DNA of 64,000 nucleotides, from NCBI GenBank assembly GCA_963665325.3, contig OZ224045.1, positions 1,248,001 to 1,312,000 on the forward strand, written 5' to 3'. Both the position numbers and the translations under genes were made by a program. The notes under the pieces were generated by a model, which saw only the letters and a program-made list of their open reading frames with translations, did not search any database and was not told the DNA's origin. This document shows positions 3,022-47,920 of the stretch, piece after piece. Numbering within the stretch: the first letter of the stretch is position 1; each line of letters starts with the position of its first letter. This stretch comes from Alphaproteobacteria bacterium. GTDB lineage: Bacteria > Pseudomonadota > Alphaproteobacteria > Bin95.

Positions 3022-4188
3022 TTATGGGTCTGCCGTTGTCCTGCTGCCGGTCATTATGGCGCTCACGGCCTGCCCGACCCGTTCGGCAGCGGCTTCGATG
3101 TCGCGGTCGGCGAGATGGGCGTAGCGAAGCGTCATCTGGACATCCGTATGGCCGAGCAGGCGGGAGACGACGGGCACGGGCACGCCGTTCATTATGGCAT
3201 GGCTCGCCATCGTATGCCGGAGGTCGTGAAGACGGCAGTCCTCGATTCCGGCCTCGCAGCGGACCCGGTCCCACAGCCCGAGGTTCGAACAGCGCGGGCG
3301 GGTGGGGTCGCGCGGCGAGGGGAACACGAACGGGCTGCCTGTTTCCGGCTGCCGGTCGAGAATGGCGCGGGCCTGGCTGTTGAGCGGAACCGTCCTCGGC
3401 CCCGTCTTGGCGTCTGCGAGCGCCAGCATGCCGTCGCGGATTTCCGACCGGCGCAGATTGACGATCTCGCCCCTGCGGCATCCGGTGAGCAGCAGCAGCC
3501 GGATGATGTCGGCCTGCGGACGTCTGTCCTTGCAGGACAGCGCATCCAGGACGGCGTGCAGGCGTCCAAGTTCTTCCTTGGACAGGAAGCGCGTGAGCTT
3601 CGCGCGCCGGTTGAACGCGATGCCCAGTGCGGGGTTGCGTTCGATATGGCCGCAGGCGACGGCGAAGTTCAGGATTTGCCGGAGGCGACCGAGTATGTGA
3701 TTGGCGTTGCCCGGCGCGGTCCGGCTGAAGCGGTCGAACCAGCGCCCGATCCGGGCCTCGCTTATGCGGTCCAGCGGTTTCGATCCGAAGACGGGAAGAA
3801 GCTGGCTCGCCAGCGCATACCGGGCGGTCTTCTTCGTCGAAGGCTTGTAGCGGTCGTAGTGCGCCGCCTTCCACGGCCCCGATACGAAGTCCCGGAACAG
3901 CGGGACCGGACAAGCAGTCTCGATGCTCTTCCCGGGCTCCGGGTTCGCACGGCGGGCGTGGCATTCCCTGCGGACCTCCTCCAGGCTCTTCATGCTGATC
4001 GGACCGAGCGAGATGCGCTTCGTGCGCCCGCCGATGTCCAGAAGCAACACATAGCTGCGCCCGCCGGTGGGCCGCACCCGGACGCCGAGGCCGGCGATGC
4101 GGCTGTCCCAGACCGTGTATTCCCGCTCGCGGGGACGGAGCCGGGCAATGGCGGCGTCGGTGAGTTTTATCCTCTCCCTGCCCGCCAT
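3022..4188 (-). CDS. Tyrosine recombinase/integrase with N-terminal arm-binding domain
   Basis: N-term LTDAAI...WDSRIAGLGVRVRPTG; catalytic motifs TGCRRGEI, KTG, HDLRHT, LLGH, TLRY. Confidence 0.93.
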   Translation of the reverse strand: MAGRERIKLTDAAIARLRPREREYTVWDSRIAGLGVRVRPTGGRSYVLLLDIGGRTKRISLGPISMKSLEEVRRECHARRANPEPGKSIETACPVPLFRDFVSGPWKAAHYDRYKPSTKKTARYALASQLLPVFGSKPLDRISEARIGRWFDRFSRTAPGNANHILGRLRQILNFAVACGHIERNPALGIAFNRRAKLTRFLSKEELGRLHAVLDALSCKDRRPQADIIRLLLLTGCRRGEIVNLRRSEIRDGMLALADAKTGPRTVPLNSQARAILDRQPETGSPFVFPSPRDPTRPRCSNLGLWDRVRCEAGIEDCRLHDLRHTMASHAIMNGVPVPVVSRLLGHTDVQMTLRYAHLADRDIEAAAERVGQAVSAIMTGSRTTADP

Positions 4189-4191
4189 CGC

Positions 4192-5459
4192 TCAGTTTCC
4201 CTCAAGCGCGGCGCCGACCGTCTCGGCGGCCTCGCGCACCATGGCGTCGGCAAGGTGGATGTATTTCAGCGTGGTCTCCGGCCTGTTGTGGCCGAGCAGC
4301 CGGCCGATCGCCAGCACGGTCTCGCCCTGCCTGAGCGCCAGGCTCGCTACCGTGTGGCGCAGGTCGTGAAGATGCACGTCCTCAAGCCCCGCCTCCTCCC
4401 GGACCCGCTTCCAGAAACGCTCCAGCCAGTTGATGCTCCGGGGGCGGTCGCCCCGCGACGCCGGGAACACCCGGCGCCCCTTCCGCTCGATGCCGTCGAG
4501 AACGGCGCGCGCCGGTCCGGAGAGCCACACTGTCCTCGGCCCCGTCTTGCCGTCGCGCAGGAACAGGTGGCCGTCCCGGTAGTCGGACCAGCTGAGCGTC
4601 AGGATTTCGCTCTTGCGGCACCCGGTGAGCAGCAACAGGCGGATGAGCGCGGCCTGACCGGGCCATCGGGCCTCATGCGCAGTCAGCCTTTCCGACAGGC
4701 GGCGGATTTCGTCGTCGGAGAGGAACCGCTCCCGGCCCTTGCGGCGGTAGCGCCGGATGCCCCGGCAGGGATTGGAGCCCTCGGGCCGCAGGCCCATGCG
4801 CTCCGCCTCCCTCATGATGACGGAGAGGACCGGCATGGACCTGTCCGCCGCCACCGGCGTGGCGCGCAGGCGGGCGAACCAGTTCCTCACCTCCTGCCGG
4901 TCGATGGCGGCAATCGGCCGCCCTGTGAAATGCGGCAGCAGCTGGTTGTGAAGATAGCAGCGGTTGACGGACAGCGTCCCCGGCTTCCAGAGCCGCTCGT
5001 AATGCCCGAACGTCGCCTCGGCGACGGCTTCGAAGACAGTCTCGCCGGGCGCGTGGAGCATGTCCTCGCCGCGCCGGACGGCGGCAAGCATTTCAGTAGC
5101 CGAAGCCCGCGCCTCCGTGACGGAAACCGTTCGGGTCTCGGGGGACGGAACACGCGCGGTTGCTATTGGAATGATGCAGTCCCGAGGGAAGCTGCGACCT
5201 TCCGATCGTTCAGCCCGGCTTGGCACCGCGCGCATCCCCCGAGCGTCGAACGGTTACCCGTGACGTTCATGCTCTCGGCGTCGCCGACGATCCTCCAGGT
5301 CCGTTCGCCCCGATGCTGGCACTGGATGAAGAACTGCTTGCGACCCGACGGCGACACGCGCACGCCGAAGCCCCTGAGCTTCACGTCACGGAAGTCTCGG
5401 ACTGTCTTGCGCGATTTGAGCGCCCCCACGCGGGCGTCGGTGAGGATGGTTGCAGGCAT
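4192..5459 (-). pseudogene. Second tandem tyrosine integrase, frameshifted by MITE insertion
   Basis: 5' part MPATILTDARV...ESMNVT and 3' part EARASA...HDLRHT...LLGH...TLKY are in different frames; removing 5123-5265 (143 bp) restores a 1125-bp, 374-aa ORF. Confidence 0.9.
5123..5257. mobile_element. 135-bp MITE with IS66-like ends
   Basis: 8-bp direct repeat CCGTGACG at 5115-5122 and 5258-5265; 23-bp TIRs GAAACCGTTCGGGTCTCGGGGGA / GTAACCGTTCGACGCTCGGGGGA (19/23); GTAA terminus plus 8-bp TSD is the IS66 signature. Confidence 0.85.
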
Positions 5460-40707: not shown

Positions 40708-42771
40708 ACCGGAACCGCCAGCCTGTCGGTTGTCGGACATGATCCGAACCCGCCGATCGTCGTGATCCGGGGCCCTCTTCCCGGTTCGTTGGCAGGCTTT
40801 CGTCACCCATCGGCTTCCGAGATCGGTTCCGGATGGACAAGCTGATGAGAGATCGCAGTCAGTCGTTCGGCGCGGGCGGATCGGCCAATGCCCCGAGGTC
40901 TCCCGCCTCGTCGATCAAGCAGACTTTCATCCAGGCCCGAGAGTGGCTATGGCCACCGGATGGTGGCCATAGGGTGTAAAAGTACCGCGCCGACGAGGCC
41001 TACGGTCAACCATTGCCCCTTGAATGCGCCACTGCACGCTCGGCGACTTGCGAGCGGTCCTCGCCGAGTTCGGGGAAGTGACAGATCGCGACGTGATCGT
41101 CACCGGTGTCAATCGGCGGGGGTCGATGTCGCACGCACACGGCTGGCAGCCGTTCACCCTGACTCTCCACGGTTTCGACGTCCGGGTTGTTGTTAAGCGT
41201 GGAAGATTGACCCCCTGTTGGGGGTTATCGGCGTCCAAAATTGACCCCCCATGGATTGTGTCCATGAACACGCCCTGTCGTTGGACGGACGGGGTGGGGG
41301 AGATGCTGGTTGTGGAGACGATAGCGCGGATCCGTCGGGATCATCTGGTGAAGGGCGTTCCGATCAAGAAGCTGGCGCGGGATTTGAGGGTTTCGAAGAA
41401 CACGATACGCAAGGTGGTTCGGGGCGATACGACCTCGCACAGCTATGAGCGCAAGATCCAGCCGATGCCGAAGCTTGGGCCTTGGGTGGCAGAGCTTGAG
41501 CGCCAGCTGGAGGCCAACGAGAAGAAGAAGCGCCGGGATCGCCTGTCCCTGCTGCAGATCCATGAGGACCTTGGCGAGCTGGGCTACAAGGGCGGCTATG
41601 ACGCGGTCCGGCGCTACGCCAGGGCGTGGCGGCGCCGACGCCGTCTGTTATCGCCGTCGCAGGCCTATGTGCCGCTGATCTTCGATCCGGGCGAGGCCTA
41701 CCAGTTCGACTGGAGCCACGAGTATGCGCGTCTGGCGGGAGCGACGACCAAGGTGAAGGCGGCGCACATGCGGCTGTGCCACAGCCGCATGTATCTGGTG
41801 CAGATCTTTCCCCGCGAGAGCCAGGAGATGGTCTTTGAGGCGCACGAGCGTGCCTTCCGCTTCTTCGGCGGGGTCTGCCGACGGGGCATCTACGACAACA
41901 TGAAGACGGCGGTGAACACGATCTTCGTCGGCAAGGAGCGTGCCTACAACCGCCGCTTCCAGGAGATGTGCTCGCACCATCTGGTGGAGCCAGTGGCGTG
42001 CACGCCAGGGGCGGGCTGGGAGAAGGGGCAGGTTGAGAAGCAGGTGGGAGACCTTCGCGGGCGTCTGTTCGCGCGCAGCCCGCGGGGCCGCTCCTACACC
42101 GAGATCAACGAGTGGCTGATGGATCGGTGCATCGAGGAGGCCAGGAAGCAGCCGCATCCGACGATCGAGGGCAAGACGGTGTGGCAGGTATTCGAGGAGG
42201 AGCGGCCCTTCCTGATGGCATACCGCGGTCCCTTCGACGGCTTCCATGCCAGCGAGGTGTCAGTCTCGAAGACCTGCCTGGTGCGCTTCGACAACAACCA
42301 GTACAGCGTCTCTGCCCGCGCGGTGGGACGGCCGGTGGACGTGCGGGCCTATGCCGAGCGGATCGTCATCCGCCAGGACGGCGAGATCGTCGCCGAGCAT
42401 CCCCGGAGCTTCGGGCGCGGTCGGTTCGTCTACGATCCGTGGCATTACGTGCCGATCCTGACGAGGAAGCCCGGCGCACTGAGGAACGGCGCACCCTTCA
42501 AGGACTGGCAGTTGCCCAACGCGCTGGGCCGCCTGCGAACCCGGCTCGCCGGCCACGACGACGGCGACCGGCAGTTCGTCAAGATCCTCGCGGCGGTGCT
42601 GGAGGACGGGCTGGAGGCGGTCGATGAGCGGGCGCAGGCTTTCAGCGGCGATCAGGGGCTGATCGGCTCGGATTAATCGAGGTTTTGGATTGGGTGCCCC
42701 CCGGCGATCTTGCAAGAAGGCCGCCGGAGGGCTTGTCTCGGTGACAGTGACATCAACCTGAGACGGCCCCA

Positions 42772-43386
42772 ATGTCGCACAAGCTGTTCCGGCACTCCAA
42801 TCTCTCCAACGCCCGGGTTTGGGATTTTCTGAAGCAGGTCGACGCGGCCGAGGCGGAGGCGTGCCGGGCGGCGGGTTGCCCGCGCTGCGGCGGCGCGCTT
42901 CACAGCGCGAGCTACCCGCGCAAGCCGCACGGTCTGGCGGCGAATCTTCGGAACGACGTTCGGCGCTTCAGCCTGTGCTGTTCGGTGTGCCGACGCCGCG
43001 TGAAGCCGCCGTCGGTGCGTTTCTTCGGCAGGCGCTTTTACGTCGGGGCGCTGTTCCTTGTGGTGAGTGCGCTGGCTGTGGCCGGCGGCGCGCGGTTGCA
43101 GACGATCGCGCGGCGGTGCGGGGTTCCGGCCTCGACGCTGAAGCGCTGGCGGCGCTGGTGGCTGGAAGCCTTCCCGCTGACCCGGGAGTGGCAGGCGAGA
43201 CGGGGCGAGCTGGCGGCGCCGCCCGAAGAGGCGCCGCTGCGCCGGCTGCTGCGCATCATGCGGGGCCGTGGCTTCCGCTCGCGGCTGCTGCGGAGCCTGG
43301 TCTGGCTGATGCCGTGGACCGGCTTTTGCGCGCTCGGCGCAGGTCCGGCTTCGCCCGCAGAAAGCGTTTCTATGATGCACGGATAG
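42772..43386 (+). CDS. Zn-ribbon + HTH protein (DUF6431-like)
   Basis: CPRCGG...CCSVCRR; HTH-like TIARRCGVPASTLKRWRRWW. Confidence 0.75.
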   Translation: MSHKLFRHSNLSNARVWDFLKQVDAAEAEACRAAGCPRCGGALHSASYPRKPHGLAANLRNDVRRFSLCCSVCRRRVKPPSVRFFGRRFYVGALFLVVSALAVAGGARLQTIARRCGVPASTLKRWRRWWLEAFPLTREWQARRGELAAPPEEAPLRRLLRIMRGRGFRSRLLRSLVWLMPWTGFCALGAGPASPAESVSMMHG

Positions 43387-43434
43387 GGCACCGCATCATC
43401 GGCACCTCCACGAAGCAGCGAGGGGGATGCCGGA

Positions 43435-44910
43435 ATGAACAGCAACGACGGGAGCGAGCGTCGCGACCGGTGGGCGCGGTTGCGCTTCGCGGTGGTCGGG
43501 CCGCTTCTGGCCTCGCCGCCGCCGGCGGGGCGGCTGCACGCCGAGCTTGAGCGGCTTGCCGAACGCGAGTGGGATCACCCGTCCGGCAAGGGCCGGGTGC
43601 GCTTCGCGGTGTCCACGATCGAGCGCTGGTACTACCAGGCGCGGGCGGCGGACAACGATCCGGTGGGGGCGCTCAAGCGGCGCCCGCGCGCCGATGCCGG
43701 GCGCCCGCGCGCGATGTCGCCGACGCTGATCGAGGCGCTGCACGAGCAGTACCGGGCGCATCCGTCGTGGTCGGCGCAGCTTCATCACGAGAATCTGGCC
43801 GCGCGGGTCGAGGCCGATCCCGAGCTCGGCCCGATACCGTCCTACGCGACGCTGACCCGGGCGATGCGGGCTCGCGGGCTGGTACGCAAGCGCCGGCGCA
43901 AGTGGCATGAGAGCGAGGCCAGGCCGGCGGTCGAAGCCCGCGAGGTATTGAGCTACGAGGTCTCGCGCTCTCACGCCCTGTGGCACGCCGACATGCACAG
44001 CGCCAAGCGTCGCGTGCTGACCGCCTCGGGCGAGTGGAAGACGCCGATCCTGCTCGGCTTCCTCGACGACCACTCGCGCCTCGGCTGCCACCTTCAGTGG
44101 TACCTCGCCGAGACCGCCGAGGTGTTCGTCCACGGCCTTTGCCAGGCCTTCATGAAGCGCGGTCTGCCGAGGTCCCTGCTGACCGACAACGGCGCGGCGA
44201 TGACCGCGGGCGAGGTCGAGGAGGGGTTGCACCGGCTCGGCATCGCGGGGGTCACGACGCTCGCTTACAGCCCCCATCAGAACGGCAAGATCGAGTCGTT
44301 CTGGGGCACGGTCGAATCGCGCCTGATGGCTCAGCTCGAAGGCGTCGACGCGCTTACCTTGAAGATGCTCAACGACGCCACCATCGCCTGGCTGGAGCAG
44401 GACTATCACCGCCGCAAGCACCGCGAGCTCGGCATGACGCCGCATCAACGCCTGGCCGGGAGCGTCGACGCGTCGAGATCCTGCCCCGGCTCGGCCGAGC
44501 TCAAGGCGGCCTTCCGCATCACCAGGAAGCGCACGCTCAGGCGCTCGGACGGCACCGTCTCGGTCGAGGGCATCCGCTACCAGGTGCCACAGCCGTGGCG
44601 CCACCTGCGCGAGGCCTGGATCCGTTACGCGCGCTGGAACCTCGCCAGCGTCGATCTGATCGACGGTCGAGGCGGCGAGCGCCTGTGCACGCTGTACCCC
44701 CTCGACAAGCGCGGCAACGCCGATGGCGTGCGCCGTCCCGCCGGCCCCGGCGGCAACGATGGCAATGGCGGCGCGGGGACGGGGGAACTTCCGCCGCTGC
44801 TCAAGGGCATGCTCGACGCCCAGGCCGCAACCGGCCTGCCGCCGGCCTGGCTGCCCCATGACAAGACGCCCGGTCCGGGCGAGGACGAAGATCGGGGAGA
44901 TGCGCCATGA
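43435..44910 (+). CDS. DDE (rve-type) transposase with Mu-transposase-like C-terminus
   Basis: WHADMH, LDDHSR, TDNGAA, NGKIESFW; DGTVSVEGIRYQVP. Confidence 0.9.
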   Translation: MNSNDGSERRDRWARLRFAVVGPLLASPPPAGRLHAELERLAEREWDHPSGKGRVRFAVSTIERWYYQARAADNDPVGALKRRPRADAGRPRAMSPTLIEALHEQYRAHPSWSAQLHHENLAARVEADPELGPIPSYATLTRAMRARGLVRKRRRKWHESEARPAVEAREVLSYEVSRSHALWHADMHSAKRRVLTASGEWKTPILLGFLDDHSRLGCHLQWYLAETAEVFVHGLCQAFMKRGLPRSLLTDNGAAMTAGEVEEGLHRLGIAGVTTLAYSPHQNGKIESFWGTVESRLMAQLEGVDALTLKMLNDATIAWLEQDYHRRKHRELGMTPHQRLAGSVDASRSCPGSAELKAAFRITRKRTLRRSDGTVSVEGIRYQVPQPWRHLREAWIRYARWNLASVDLIDGRGGERLCTLYPLDKRGNADGVRRPAGPGGNDGNGGAGTGELPPLLKGMLDAQAATGLPPAWLPHDKTPGPGEDEDRGDAP

Positions 44911-45740
44911 ACCGGGAACTGCTCACCTTCTACGGGCTCAAGTGGAACCCCTTCGCCACCGACCTGCCGGTCGACAGTCTCATGGCGACGCCTGCCGTCG
45001 ACAGCTTCTGCCTCAGGATCGAGCGCCACCTGGTGCGCCAGGGCGGCTTCGCCTTGATCGCCGGCGAGCCCGGCGCCGGAAAGAGTGTGGCGTTGCGCCT
45101 GCTCGCCGACCGTCTCGGCCGCTGCGAGGGGCTCAGCATCGCCGCCATCACCCATCCCTCCTCCCGGCTGTCCGACTTCTACCGCGAGATCGGCGAGATG
45201 TTCGGCGTCGACCTGATGTACAACAACCGCTGGGCCAGCTTCAAAAGCCTGCGCGAGCGCTGGCTCGCCCATGTCGACGATACCCGCATGCGCCCCGTCG
45301 TGCTCGTCGACGAGGCCCAGGAGCTGCTGCCCTCGGTGTTCTCCGAGATCCGCCTGCTGGCTTCGACCGACTTCGACTCGCGCGCCATCCTCTCGGTCGT
45401 CCTCGCCGGCGACACGCGCCTGCTCGACAAGCTCCGCCAGCCCGATCTGCAGCCCATCGCCTCGCGCATCCGCCAGCGCCTGGTCATGACCAAGGCCGAG
45501 GCCGGCGACCTCGCGGCCCTGCTCGACCATCTGATCGAGCAGGCCGGCAATCCCGGCCTCATGACCGCGGGCCTCAAGGACACCCTGGTCGCCCATGCCG
45601 ACGGCAACCCGCGGGCGCTCACCGTCATGGCCGACGCCCTGCTCGCCGCCGCCGCCGAGAAGGAGCGCGAGGTCCTCGACGAGAAGCTCTTCATCGAGAC
45701 CCTGGGCGAACCCGCCAAGCCGAGGAGGGCGCGGCGGTGA
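44907..45740 (+). CDS. ExeA-like AAA+ ATPase (transposition helper)
   Basis: YGLKWNPF, GEPGAGKS, VLVDEAQ, GNPR; ATGA overlap with transposase. Confidence 0.9.
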   Translation: MNRELLTFYGLKWNPFATDLPVDSLMATPAVDSFCLRIERHLVRQGGFALIAGEPGAGKSVALRLLADRLGRCEGLSIAAITHPSSRLSDFYREIGEMFGVDLMYNNRWASFKSLRERWLAHVDDTRMRPVVLVDEAQELLPSVFSEIRLLASTDFDSRAILSVVLAGDTRLLDKLRQPDLQPIASRIRQRLVMTKAEAGDLAALLDHLIEQAGNPGLMTAGLKDTLVAHADGNPRALTVMADALLAAAAEKEREVLDEKLFIETLGEPAKPRRARR

Positions 45741-46735
45741 AGGGCTTCCCGACACGGGCGCCGGCGGAGCTCGAAGAGCGCCCCCAGGCGCGCCGCTGGA
45801 TGGTCGAGGCGTTGTGGTCCGAGCAGGGCGTCGGCATCGTCGGCGGCGAGCCCAAGTGCGGCAAATCCTTCCTCGCACTCGACATCGCCGTCGCGGTCGC
45901 CGCCGGCGTCCCCTGCCTGCGCCACTTCCGTCCCGCCGCAAGCGGCCCCGTGCTGCTGTTCGCCGCCGAGGACGCCGGCCATATCGTGCGCGCACGCCTC
46001 CAGGGCATCGCAAAGGCGGCAGGCACCGCGTTCGAGACCCTCGACATCGCCGTCATCGACGTGCCCACGCTGCGTCTCGACCATCGCGCCGATCGCCAGC
46101 GCCTGGTCGAGACGGTGGAGCGCGTCTCACCCCGCCTCGTCGTCCTCGACCCCCTCGTGCGCCTGCACGGCGTCGACGAAAATACCGTCGCCGAGGTCGC
46201 CCCCATGCTGGGCTTCCTGCGCGACATACAGCGCCGCTTCGAAACCGCCGTCCTCCTCGTCCATCACGCACGAAAGAGCGGCGGCTCCCGGCCCGGGCAG
46301 GCGCTGCGCGGCAGCAGCGAACTTCACGCCTGGGGCGATTCGAATCTGTACCTGCGCCGGCGAGACCGCCAGATCCTCATGACCGTCGAGCATCGCGACG
46401 CCCCTGGCCTCGAAGACCTCGAGATCGAACTCGCCGACGACGACGAGCGCCCCGCCCTGCGGTTGCGCGAGACGCCGGAAGACCAGGCGCCGGAGCCGGA
46501 TACCCCCGAACGGCGCATCCTGCAGGCCCTCGCCGACGCCGACGCGCCGCTCTCCCAGCGCCGGATCCGCGAGCGCGCGGCAACCCGGCCCGCAACCGTC
46601 GCCGAGGCGCTGCACAGGCTCGTCCGCGAAGGACGCGTCGAGCGCGCATCCGAAGGCGGATACCGCCTCGCCGCCCTCAACGGCAACGACCGCAGGGACA
46701 CGTTACCGAAAACCGTTACCGCCTCGAACCCCTAG
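45737..46735 (+). CDS. AAA_25 / RepA-type helicase-like ATPase with C-terminal winged helix
   Basis: GTGA overlap; GGEPKCGKS, LFAAED, VVLDPL, LLVHHARK, LRGSS; tail ERRILQAL...LSQRRIRE...VAEALHRLVREGRV. Confidence 0.85.
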   Translation: MKGFPTRAPAELEERPQARRWMVEALWSEQGVGIVGGEPKCGKSFLALDIAVAVAAGVPCLRHFRPAASGPVLLFAAEDAGHIVRARLQGIAKAAGTAFETLDIAVIDVPTLRLDHRADRQRLVETVERVSPRLVVLDPLVRLHGVDENTVAEVAPMLGFLRDIQRRFETAVLLVHHARKSGGSRPGQALRGSSELHAWGDSNLYLRRRDRQILMTVEHRDAPGLEDLEIELADDDERPALRLRETPEDQAPEPDTPERRILQALADADAPLSQRRIRERAATRPATVAEALHRLVREGRVERASEGGYRLAALNGNDRRDTLPKTVTASNP

Positions 46736-46762
46736 GGAGAGAGGGTAACGGTAACGGGTAAC
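46701..46762. repeat. Convergent iteron-like GTTACC/GGTAAC repeats around CCCTAGGG
   Basis: CGTTACCG at 46701 and 46714; GGTAAC at 46744, 46750, 46757. Confidence 0.8.
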
Positions 46763-47191
46763 ACCGCTCCCATTGTCACACTGCGTAAAGCGGCCGGCCC
46801 GTGGCCGGAAGCTTGCTTACGGCCATGGATGCACTCCGTCGGAGGGACGGCGGCGGGTCACCCGAAGGGCCGGAGCGCAGCGCAGGAGCCGCGAAGCGGC
46901 TTGACGCGCCGACGGCCGTCCGACACCCCCGCCGTCACGCCCGGCCCGACGCCTGAAAACCATCGAACAACGTGACCATCCCGCCATCAGATACCGAGAG
47001 CACACTCATCGAGGCGGCCTGCGCCGAGGCGCTCGCCTGCGGCGCCTGCAGCGCCGACGTCGTGCTCAACATCCTCGCCCGGCAGCGCCAGCCGGCACCG
47101 CCGGCAATCATCCCGACGCCCGAGGGCCTGAAGCTCCGCCACCAGCCGGTGGCCGACTGTCAGCGCTACGACAGCCTGAGGGAGGCCGGTC

Positions 47192-47920
47192 ATGGAGCGT
47201 CATGATGTGCTGGAGATGATGACCCAGCTGAAGCTCGCAGGCATGCGAGCCGCCTATGACGACATCCTCGCCGACGGGCTCAAGCGCCGTCATCCGGTGC
47301 AGCAGATCATCGGTACGCTGCTGCAGGTCGAGATCGCCGACAAGAGGGCACGCTCGATCAAGTACCAGATGGCGTCCGCCAAGCTGCCCACGGCCAAGGA
47401 ACTGGCCGACTTCGACTTCGCCGGCTCGCCGGTCAACGAGCCCCTGATCCAGGAGCTCGCCGGCGGCGGCTTCCTCGAGGGCCAGCGCAACATCGTCCTG
47501 GTCGGCGGCACCGGCACCGGCAAGACCCATCTCGCCGTCGCCGTCGCGCGCTCCTGCATCCGCAAGGGCGCCCGTGGCCGCTGCTACAACGTCGTCGACC
47601 TGGTGAACCACCTCGAGGCCGAACTCCGTGCCGGGCGCCAGGGCCGCACCGCAGACCAGCTCGTCCGACGCGACTTCGTCATCCTCGACGAACTCGGCTA
47701 CCTGCCCTTCGCCCAAGCCGGCGGACAGCTCCTCTTCCACCTCATGAGCCGGCTCTACGAGCGAACCTCGATCGTCATCACCACCAACCTCGCCTTCGGC
47801 GAGTGGCCGTCCGTCTTCGGCGATCCCAAGATGACCACGGCGTTGCTCGATCGTCTCACCCACCATTGCGAGATCATCGAGACCGGCAACGAGAGCTGGC
47901 GCTTCAAGAACCGCTCCTGA
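47192..47920 (+). CDS. istB: IS21 helper ATPase IstB (element B)
   Basis: [33 protein letters not shown]. Confidence 0.95.

Follow-up and report, generated by a model that had tools for sequence, protein, structure and literature searches.

Within a 64,000-nucleotide stretch of an alphaproteobacterial genome (GTDB lineage Bin95; assembly GCA_963665325.3, contig OZ224045.1, positions 1,248,001 to 1,312,000 of the forward strand), hereafter the window, we identified a transposon of 4384 bp (42625-47008, + strand) in which a core assignable to the Tn6049 type is followed by a gene for a predicted RepA/DnaB-like helicase. On balance, we favor the reading that an exchangeable primosome module is joined here, as an accessory, to a Tn6049-type engine and promotes DNA synthesis during replicative or copy-out transposition. 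The location of the helicase gene beside primase genes in sister elements suggests that such transposons bring along part of their own DNA-copying machinery. How DNA joining gives way to DNA synthesis is, among DDE transposons, understood for phage Mu alone, where the hand-over proceeds via the host restart primosome. A compact element of 4.4-5.5 kb with a Mu-like engine, its own helicase and, in the sisters, its own primase would make this hand-over testable with few genes, with the helicase-less Tn6049 and helicase-broken copies as natural controls. Such an element could also account for the bursts of identical copies that sponge-associated bacteria show.

The transposon, with its four genes, is real and very active. 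Its boundaries were read directly in the window (GGTCGA followed by TGAGCGGG on the left, CACACTCA followed by TCGAGG on the right), and the TCGA target duplication, the TGAG...CTCA ends and the length of 4384 bp given in a preliminary description of this DNA were all confirmed. The left TCGA (42621-42624) lies within an istA gene of the IS21 family and is corroborated by empty-site junctions, and the right one (47009-47012) by a survey of the duplications around other copies. Among Logan contigs from four other runs, those of X3 and X8 join position 42620 to 47009 with four shared bases, and those of X2 and X3 begin or end precisely at 42625 and 47008. In-silico excision of the element together with one TCGA yields an istA frame that stays open for 597 codons from 41024 and encodes, when started at the ATG at 41303 (codon 94), the 504-amino-acid (aa) IstA that excision had been predicted to restore. 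The exact 60-nucleotide (nt) uninterrupted istA junction occurs nine times in the same genome, only one of the ten copies of the site being interrupted, and these nine empty sites prove the insertion. The genome assembly (5.58 Mb, five contigs) contains 24 copies of the element, spread over all five contigs; 21 are 100% identical across the 4384 bp, two carry a single 1-bp gap, and one is split by a 2070-bp insertion. These 24 copies bear out the proposal that the four genes move as one unit.

A predicted RepA-type helicase on a Tn6049-type core

The first gene of the element, orf1 (42772-43386, + strand), encodes a 204-aa protein with a zinc-ribbon-like CxxC...CxxC N-terminus and an HTH_23 domain (Pfam, E = 3.4e-6). 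It is followed by the gene for a 491-aa IS481/Mu-like DDE (rve) transposase (43435-44910, +; Pfam rve, rve_3 and HTH_32) and by the gene for a 277-aa AAA_22 ATPase of the ExeA/GspA/MuB kind (44907-45740, +; Pfam AAA_22, E = 5e-20), which overlaps the DDE gene by ATGA at 44907-44910. The helicase gene (45737-46735, +), in turn, overlaps the ATPase gene by GTGA at 45737-45740. The four genes and the overlaps that link the last three are those of the preliminary description, the title of which gave the order wrongly: the zinc-ribbon/HTH gene comes first. The best NCBIfam match of the transposase is IS481 (NF033577, E = 8.4e-36), with a score of 123.9 bits that is under the family cutoff of 224; the protein also matches PHROG 310, annotated as transposase (E = 2.4e-40), and contains no Mu-transpos_C domain detectable with Pfam at E <= 0.01. 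The AAA_22 ATPase matches PHROG 296, "DNA transposition protein" (E = 1.4e-23), and, weakly, MuB (8xvb, E = 0.056).

A search of plasmids with the transposase recovered 21 records, from Cupriavidus (18), Paraburkholderia (2) and Pseudomonas (1), with proteins that are ~50% identical over 94% of the length and are annotated in RefSeq as "IS481 family transposase". The Tn6049 locus of plasmid pMOL30 comprises four open reading frames (ORFs), which encode a 181-aa "transposase", a 479-aa DDE protein, a 277-aa AAA ATPase and a 71-aa product. The same three core genes thus occur in the same order in both elements, with identities of 40% between orf1 and the 181-aa ORF (E = 2e-29), 50.4% over 94% between the DDE proteins, and 52% between the ATPases. 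The two also share TG...CA ends, short imperfect inverted repeats and a short direct repeat, of 4 bp in Tn6049 and 4-6 bp here. Judged by these sequence relationships, the core belongs to the Tn6049 type, which is named in print, and it does not represent an unnamed class. Published reports describe Tn6049 as a 3.5-kb transposon present in 12 copies in Cupriavidus metallidurans CH34 and carrying a "gspA" ATPase (PMC2864759), and as having 12-bp imperfect inverted repeats that start with TGTGC and a 4-bp direct repeat (PMC4739549). Tn6049 occurs on the Pseudomonas aeruginosa plasmid pHS87a as well. No account of a mechanism, a helicase or a primase was found in the excerpts of the Tn6049 literature, these two reports among it. 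Tn6049 differs from the window element in its size (~3.5 kb as opposed to 4384 bp) and in that it lacks the AAA_25 gene, a primase gene and the structured motif described below, the 71-aa ORF following its ATPase gene instead. We considered whether this ORF might be a remnant of the helicase tail and rejected the idea, given that it shows no similarity to the helicase.

The 332-aa product of the fourth gene is predicted to consist of a RepA/DnaB-like AAA_25 ATPase domain of the RecA fold (residues ~10-235; Pfam AAA_25, E = 4.6e-36) and a C-terminal winged helix (~255-312), and this C-terminus matches the winged helix-turn-helix (wHTH) families HTH_IclR, GntR and MarR_2 in Pfam. The only significant relative of solved structure found by sequence is the RSF1010 RepA helicase (1g8y, E = 2.4e-8), with which the Walker A, Walker B, HHARK and RGSS motifs can all be aligned, and these four are invariant across 16 lineages. 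Walker A, Walker B, an HH(A/S)(R/S)K motif and an arginine finger thus follow one another as they do in RepA. In PHROG, the protein matches the helicase parts of phage primase-helicases. Metagenomic relatives are numerous: of 8000 candidates scored, 7823 reach E <= 1e-5, and identity is at least 72% for each of the best 120; the few named proteins among the close ones are called just "AAA family ATPase".

A scan of one genome per species returned 196 stretches that encode relatives of the transposase, and the loci analyzed here are the best 80, with 54-92% identity, from 15 assemblies that are mostly alphaproteobacterial metagenome-assembled genomes (MAGs); the few loci labeled as other phyla are short contigs of uncertain binning. 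The helicase gene is present in 77 of these 80 loci, and the exceptions are a truncated locus (L072), one with an internal deletion (L087) and one in a Wenzhouxiangella MAG (L090, DDE 54% identical), in which the ATPase gene is followed by a MacB/FtsX permease gene. A 3518-bp contig (L129) likewise carries the three core genes only. Within type A, the group to which we assign the window element, the ratio of nonsynonymous to synonymous substitution rates (dN/dS) is 0.24-0.44 for the helicase, 0.25-0.41 for the transposase and 0.16-0.47 for the ATPase, and the helicase is thus under selection as strong as that on the transposase.

Beyond type A, helicases of the same kind are carried by two further transposon backbones, B and C, with DDE transposases that are only ~29% identical to the one in the window. 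In backbone B (L060 1-3500, L157, L158 and L166), the DDE protein (29%) and the ATPase (28%) are distant from those of the window element and the transposase has a Mu-transpos_C domain, yet the helicase is 78% identical. Over 1262 bp, the backbone B helicase gene and the motif downstream of it are 79.6% identical at the nucleotide level to the type-A element of the same MAG; set against the 29% identity of the DDE proteins, this shows that the module has been exchanged between backbones. In backbone C (L127, L128 and L119), also with Mu-transpos_C, the DDE protein is 29%, the ATPase 30% and the helicase, over its full length, 42% identical. That this backbone has kept the helicase suggests that helicase and transposition engines of this type have evolved together for a long time. 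Together, the 77 of 80 loci, the transposase-like dN/dS and the three backbones uphold the earlier proposal that the helicase is integral to the element rather than incidental.

The helicase gene also has recurrent primase partners. Some type-A elements are 5.2-5.3 kb long and carry, directly 3' of the helicase gene, a fifth gene for a DUF3991+Toprim protein (lineage representatives L016, L025, L032, L033, L035 and L082), with the Toprim glutamate and DxD motifs conserved. In backbone C, the same position is occupied by the gene for a DnaG-type protein with a CHC2 zinc finger and a Toprim domain, which matches PHROG 47, "DNA primase" (E = 4.6e-32). That two different types of primase accompany the same helicase argues more strongly than any other observation for a function of the helicase in DNA synthesis, and a role for it in replication or priming is likely.

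The transposon family is rare in even samples of genomes. A transposase match at E <= 1e-30 was found in three of 400 other alphaproteobacterial genomes (one of them, G241, an unpublished genome), with no match at this threshold in the genomes of the same genus and family in that sample, and an ATPase more than 31% identical was found in two of 400 genomes of the phylum. Where it does occur, several genomes show bursts of identical copies, as with the 24 copies of the present element and the dozens of loci that individual MAGs contribute.

Non-coding structures downstream of the helicase gene

Two structures follow the helicase coding sequence. The first is a hairpin of repeated hexamers, GTTACC...GGTAAC, that extends as an inverted repeat across the helicase stop codon (46702-46762, +); in two other lineages (L063 and L014), every hexamer reads GTTCCC/GGGAAC, both arms having changed together. 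The second is a structured motif of 133 nt (46794-46926, +), for which RNAalifold predicts one hairpin and a 20-bp stem that encloses three further, small hairpins, each with a C-GNA-G loop. Between lineages, the motif is 84-91% identical at the nucleotide level, compared with 77-81% for the helicase genes of the same lineages. In an alignment of eight sequences, 95.8% of the cells pair (24-47% in slid controls) and compensatory changes are found in seven pairs (3.4±1.1 in shuffles, with 1 of 500 reaching seven). With 30 distinct sequences, 29 of 46 pairs show compensatory change (10.5±1.8 in shuffles, none of 500 reaching this number), in an alignment that was made to the covariance model and so leans towards the structure. 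The presence of G-U pairs indicates that the + strand is the one that folds.

No Rfam 15 family matches either strand of 42500-47100 at E <= 1. In the genome of the window, the covariance model matches the 24 copies of the element and a single other place, there only weakly and in part, and it finds no motif in the Toprim-bearing loci, in backbone C or in Tn6049. Among 21 sources checked, six have the Toprim gene and six the full structured motif, and none has both. Mini-hairpins of the d(GCGAAGC) type occur in single-strand origins. The motif might have a role in priming.

We examined whether the motif is a constant companion of the helicase and rejected this, as it was found in loci without an AAA_25 gene. 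Of 23 metagenome contigs with the motif core, nine have the helicase upstream, six have at least 1.6 kb of upstream sequence and no helicase, and eight are too short to tell. The motif directly follows an IS110-family transposase in one contig (L155 1611-1743), lies ~240 bp after a RecD2/TraI-like helicase gene in another (L156 6366-6498), and appears in at least two further recurring contexts (L159 1859-1994; L167 1022-1160, - strand). In the locus with the internal deletion, only the first 86 codons of the ATPase gene remain after the transposase gene, and these are fused straight to the motif (L087 1399-1806). A structure common to several unrelated mobile elements and absent from Rfam constitutes a separate lead.

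A replicative reading of the module and its alternatives

In the reading that we favor, the engine would be formed by a DDE transposase of the retroviral-integrase fold, a MuB/ExeA-like AAA_22 ATPase, which most likely captures and activates target DNA, and the small zinc-ribbon/HTH protein. To this engine, a separable right-end module would have been added, composed of the AAA_25 ATPase with its putative DNA-binding winged-helix tail and then of structured non-coding DNA or RNA, the latter being replaced by a primase gene in sister lineages. The transposase would join the 3' ends of the element to the target or produce a copy-out intermediate; the element's own helicase would then load at the fork, and a primase, encoded by the element or by the host, would start the DNA synthesis that copies the element. 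The outcome could be replicative or copy-out transposition that is faster or less reliant on host restart proteins, with the module raising long-run fitness and not being required for a single insertion event. A more far-reaching version, which we put forward tentatively and regard as possible at best, is that a widespread group of Mu-like DDE transposons, of at least three deeply diverged backbones, carry their own primosome, made up of a RepA-type helicase and either a primase or a structured priming signal, and start the DNA synthesis of replicative or copy-out transposition themselves instead of leaving it to host restart proteins, in which case the 133-nt motif would represent the first single-strand priming signal or primer RNA borne by a transposon.

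Known systems resemble parts of this arrangement. The pairing of a DDE enzyme with an ATPase of the MuB/TniB/ExeA kind, and the TG...CA ends, are shared with phage Mu (MuA and MuB) and with Tn7, Tn5053 and Tn552. Mu and Tn7 generate strict 5-bp duplications, unlike the 4-6 bp duplications of the window element, the transposase of which also differs in having no Mu-transpos_C domain at the threshold given above. Mu recruits host restart proteins and carries neither a helicase nor a primase. Elements of the IS481 family, the best NCBIfam match of the transposase, are single-gene elements, in contrast to the four genes found here with a score below the family cutoff. With the RSF1010 RepA/RepB' proteins and phage primase-helicases, the module shares the AAA_25 fold and motifs and, in sister elements, the placement of the helicase beside a primase; those proteins work together with an initiator at the origins of plasmids or phages, whereas here the gene lies within a DDE transposon and its product has a C-terminal winged helix. 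Casposons, Polintons and tycheposons are mobile elements with their own replication proteins, and use Cas1, an rve integrase with a protein-primed polymerase, or tyrosine or serine recombinases; to our knowledge, a Mu-like DDE/AAA_22 element equipped with a RepA-type helicase is not among them. A full-text literature search, with ISfinder and TnCentral outside its scope, found no paper on a DDE transposon with a helicase/primase module or on the motif; the core transposon type is already named. A requirement for replication after strand transfer is on record for Mu (PMC3334882).

Several observations weigh against a replicative role of the module. The AlphaFold model of the helicase (mean pLDDT 70) is about equally similar to Rad51, DnaB, RadA and KaiC in a fold search (TM ~0.45-0.49), and the predicted fold is therefore RecA-like and nothing more specific, with helicase and recombinase not separated. 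In one related genome (G001), all 19 helicase matches are pieces, none of full length, and every copy is split or frameshifted; a 3.6-kb insert with genes for three tyrosine recombinases interrupts the helicase gene, and the primase gene has been lost by deletion. The resulting composite of 8082 bp is found, with identical sequence, at three sites that differ in their flanks and each have a duplication of their own (GCGGC, GCCTT and GCCC), which indicates that it transposed after the helicase was broken. Helicase-broken copies are thus mobile and the helicase is dispensable for mobility, at least in the short term, an outcome that the preliminary description had named as counting against its proposal; no completeness is given for this genome, and at an earlier time the helicase may have been supplied in trans by an intact copy. 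Helicase-less relatives exist as well (L090, L129 and Tn6049), and Tn6049 moves well, if one goes by the 12 copies described for CH34 (PMC2864759). Together with the composite, these relatives show that the DDE/ATPase core suffices for insertion. The occurrence of the motif away from AAA_25 genes makes the link between the motif and priming a weak one. Finally, no junction of the right end with the left end was seen in the contigs of the four runs, which drop rare forms, and none of the 24 left and 24 right ends in the genome assembly are abutted.

The last result bears on the circle junctions and excess coverage that the preliminary description had named as things to look for. Neither was seen; contigs cannot show rare forms, and with contigs and a single assembly as the material, the absent junction is no evidence against circles. 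The depth of the element relative to its flanks is ~20 in X2 and ~11-12 in X3, ratios that chromosomal multicopy alone can explain. Two joints that go back within the element (45907 to 42839 in X1 and 44814 to 42840 in X3) were taken as noise, having a depth of ~2 and lying inside genes. RNA runs contained only 7-12% of the sequence words.

Among the alternatives, a non-replicative function of the AAA_25-wHTH protein, for example as a remodeler that takes apart the stable strand-transfer complex (as ClpX does for Mu), or as a regulator, immunity factor or target-choice factor binding the element ends via its winged helix, appears unlikely to us. It would be in keeping with the generic RecA-like fold, for which Rad51, RadA and KaiC score as DnaB does, with a wHTH tail typical of regulators, with the translational coupling to the MuB-like ATPase gene, and with the dispensability of the helicase for insertion. 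The repeated, independent adjacency to two primase types is, however, hard to explain without replication, and the best sequence matches of the protein are to replicative helicases and phage primase-helicases.

We consider it improbable that the element excises as a double-stranded circle and replicates like a small plasmid, with the helicase-wHTH protein as both initiator and helicase and with the hexamer hairpin and the motif as the origin. No initiator (Rep) gene was recognized in Pfam and NCBIfam scans of the element proteins, the depth ratios give no excess beyond multicopy, helicase-broken copies spread nonetheless, and end-to-end junctions were missing from the contigs of the four runs and from the assembly; these points are set against a putative DNA-binding winged helix on the helicase, the co-varying hexamer arms at its stop codon, a combination of helicase and primase reminiscent of the RSF1010 RepA/RepB' pair, and the bursts of identical copies in several genomes. 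Equally hard to credit is that the helicase and the motif form a selfish or cargo cassette that hitch-hikes on transposons, serving, for instance, plasmid or phage interference or a host-level RNA function: the swapping of the module between backbones, the motif beside an IS110-family transposase and in other contexts, and the absence of the module from Tn6049 proper would fit, but the helicase has no PADLOC defense match, always occupies the same position with translational coupling to the ATPase gene across lineages, and is retained on the deeply diverged backbone C. The primosome module remains the reading that we favor, with the helicase unwinding DNA at transposition forks as its presumed activity.

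Target sites, element ends and minor observations

Target duplications around the 24 copies measure 5 bp in ten, 4 bp in eight and 6 bp in two cases, and are absent in four, so the fixed 4-bp duplication initially assumed gives way to one of 4-6 bp, mostly 4 or 5. A special significance had also been attached to the palindromic target CTCA-TCGA-TGAG. This string combines the terminal inverted repeat with a target that happens to be palindromic. Its palindromic look is coincidental; the targets of other copies lack this symmetry (for example, GTAGG, CCATA and ACAGT). We considered the copies that lack a duplication as a possible sign of replicative transposition and rejected this interpretation: two of the four (C2:25283 and C4:930514) carry swapped flanks, CGACC and ACGG, that fit homologous recombination between two ordinary insertions.

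The left end (42625-42771, +) has TGAGCGGGCGC at its terminus and forms a conserved non-coding leader of 147 bp, with blocks that resemble hairpins, before orf1. In an alignment of seven lineages, its mean column identity is 83%, and TGAG, CTTGCAAGAAG and GTCTCGGTGAC...GAGAC are conserved. At the right end (46975-47008, +), which has a subterminal CCATCAGATACC and ends in GCACACTCA, the consensus across six lineages is CCATCA.A....G.GC.C.CTCA. The terminal inverted repeats are weak in the window element, as described earlier, but this does not extend to the family, since those of the sister lineage L063 are ~25 bp long and nearly perfect. A scan for promoters and terminators yielded no promoter-like sites and three terminator-like sites (1.7 expected), and megablast of the element matched no plasmid.

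The istA gene of the host IS21-family element (41303-47205, +) is split into an N-terminal part that extends to 42624 and a C-terminal part at 47009-47205, and is followed by istB (47192-47920). This IS21 element (41024-42624 plus 47009-47920) is itself multicopy, with ten copies of the target site in the genome.

Genes of the same element can differ in their relatedness to the window, with orf1 of L036 being 87% and its DDE protein 77% identical, and the ATPase of L016 88% and its helicase 70%. Such mosaic identities, seen in the type-A lineages L014, L016, L036, L063 and L081, indicate frequent recombination between element lineages.

The insert with three tandem tyrosine-recombinase genes, which has a "recombinase in trio" layout, is present in L075 (8876-12350, - strand), L076 and L084, and is inverted in L077, L078, L079 and L089. 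Throughout the copies of one MAG, it sits at an identical position in the helicase gene and is found in either orientation, which suggests either site-specific insertion or in-situ inversion.

Within the genome of the window, an analysis of element orientation relative to replication direction by GC skew gave no usable origin or terminus signal. Seven element copies lie inside 120 kb (C1:1982775-2101890), where the GC skew is unusually high (0.08-0.11 over ±100 kb), and this region may be an island or a hotspot. The copy split by the 2070-bp insertion (C1:2290873-2292942) is interrupted at element position 4108-4111, with a 4-bp overlap, in the region of the hexamer hairpin. A degenerate relic of a related right-end module (C1:446362-446548 and 452255-452351), 79-86% identical to element positions 3981-4219, resembles a nest of old insertions: its two parts are separated by ~5.7 kb, and an inverted left-end copy abuts it.

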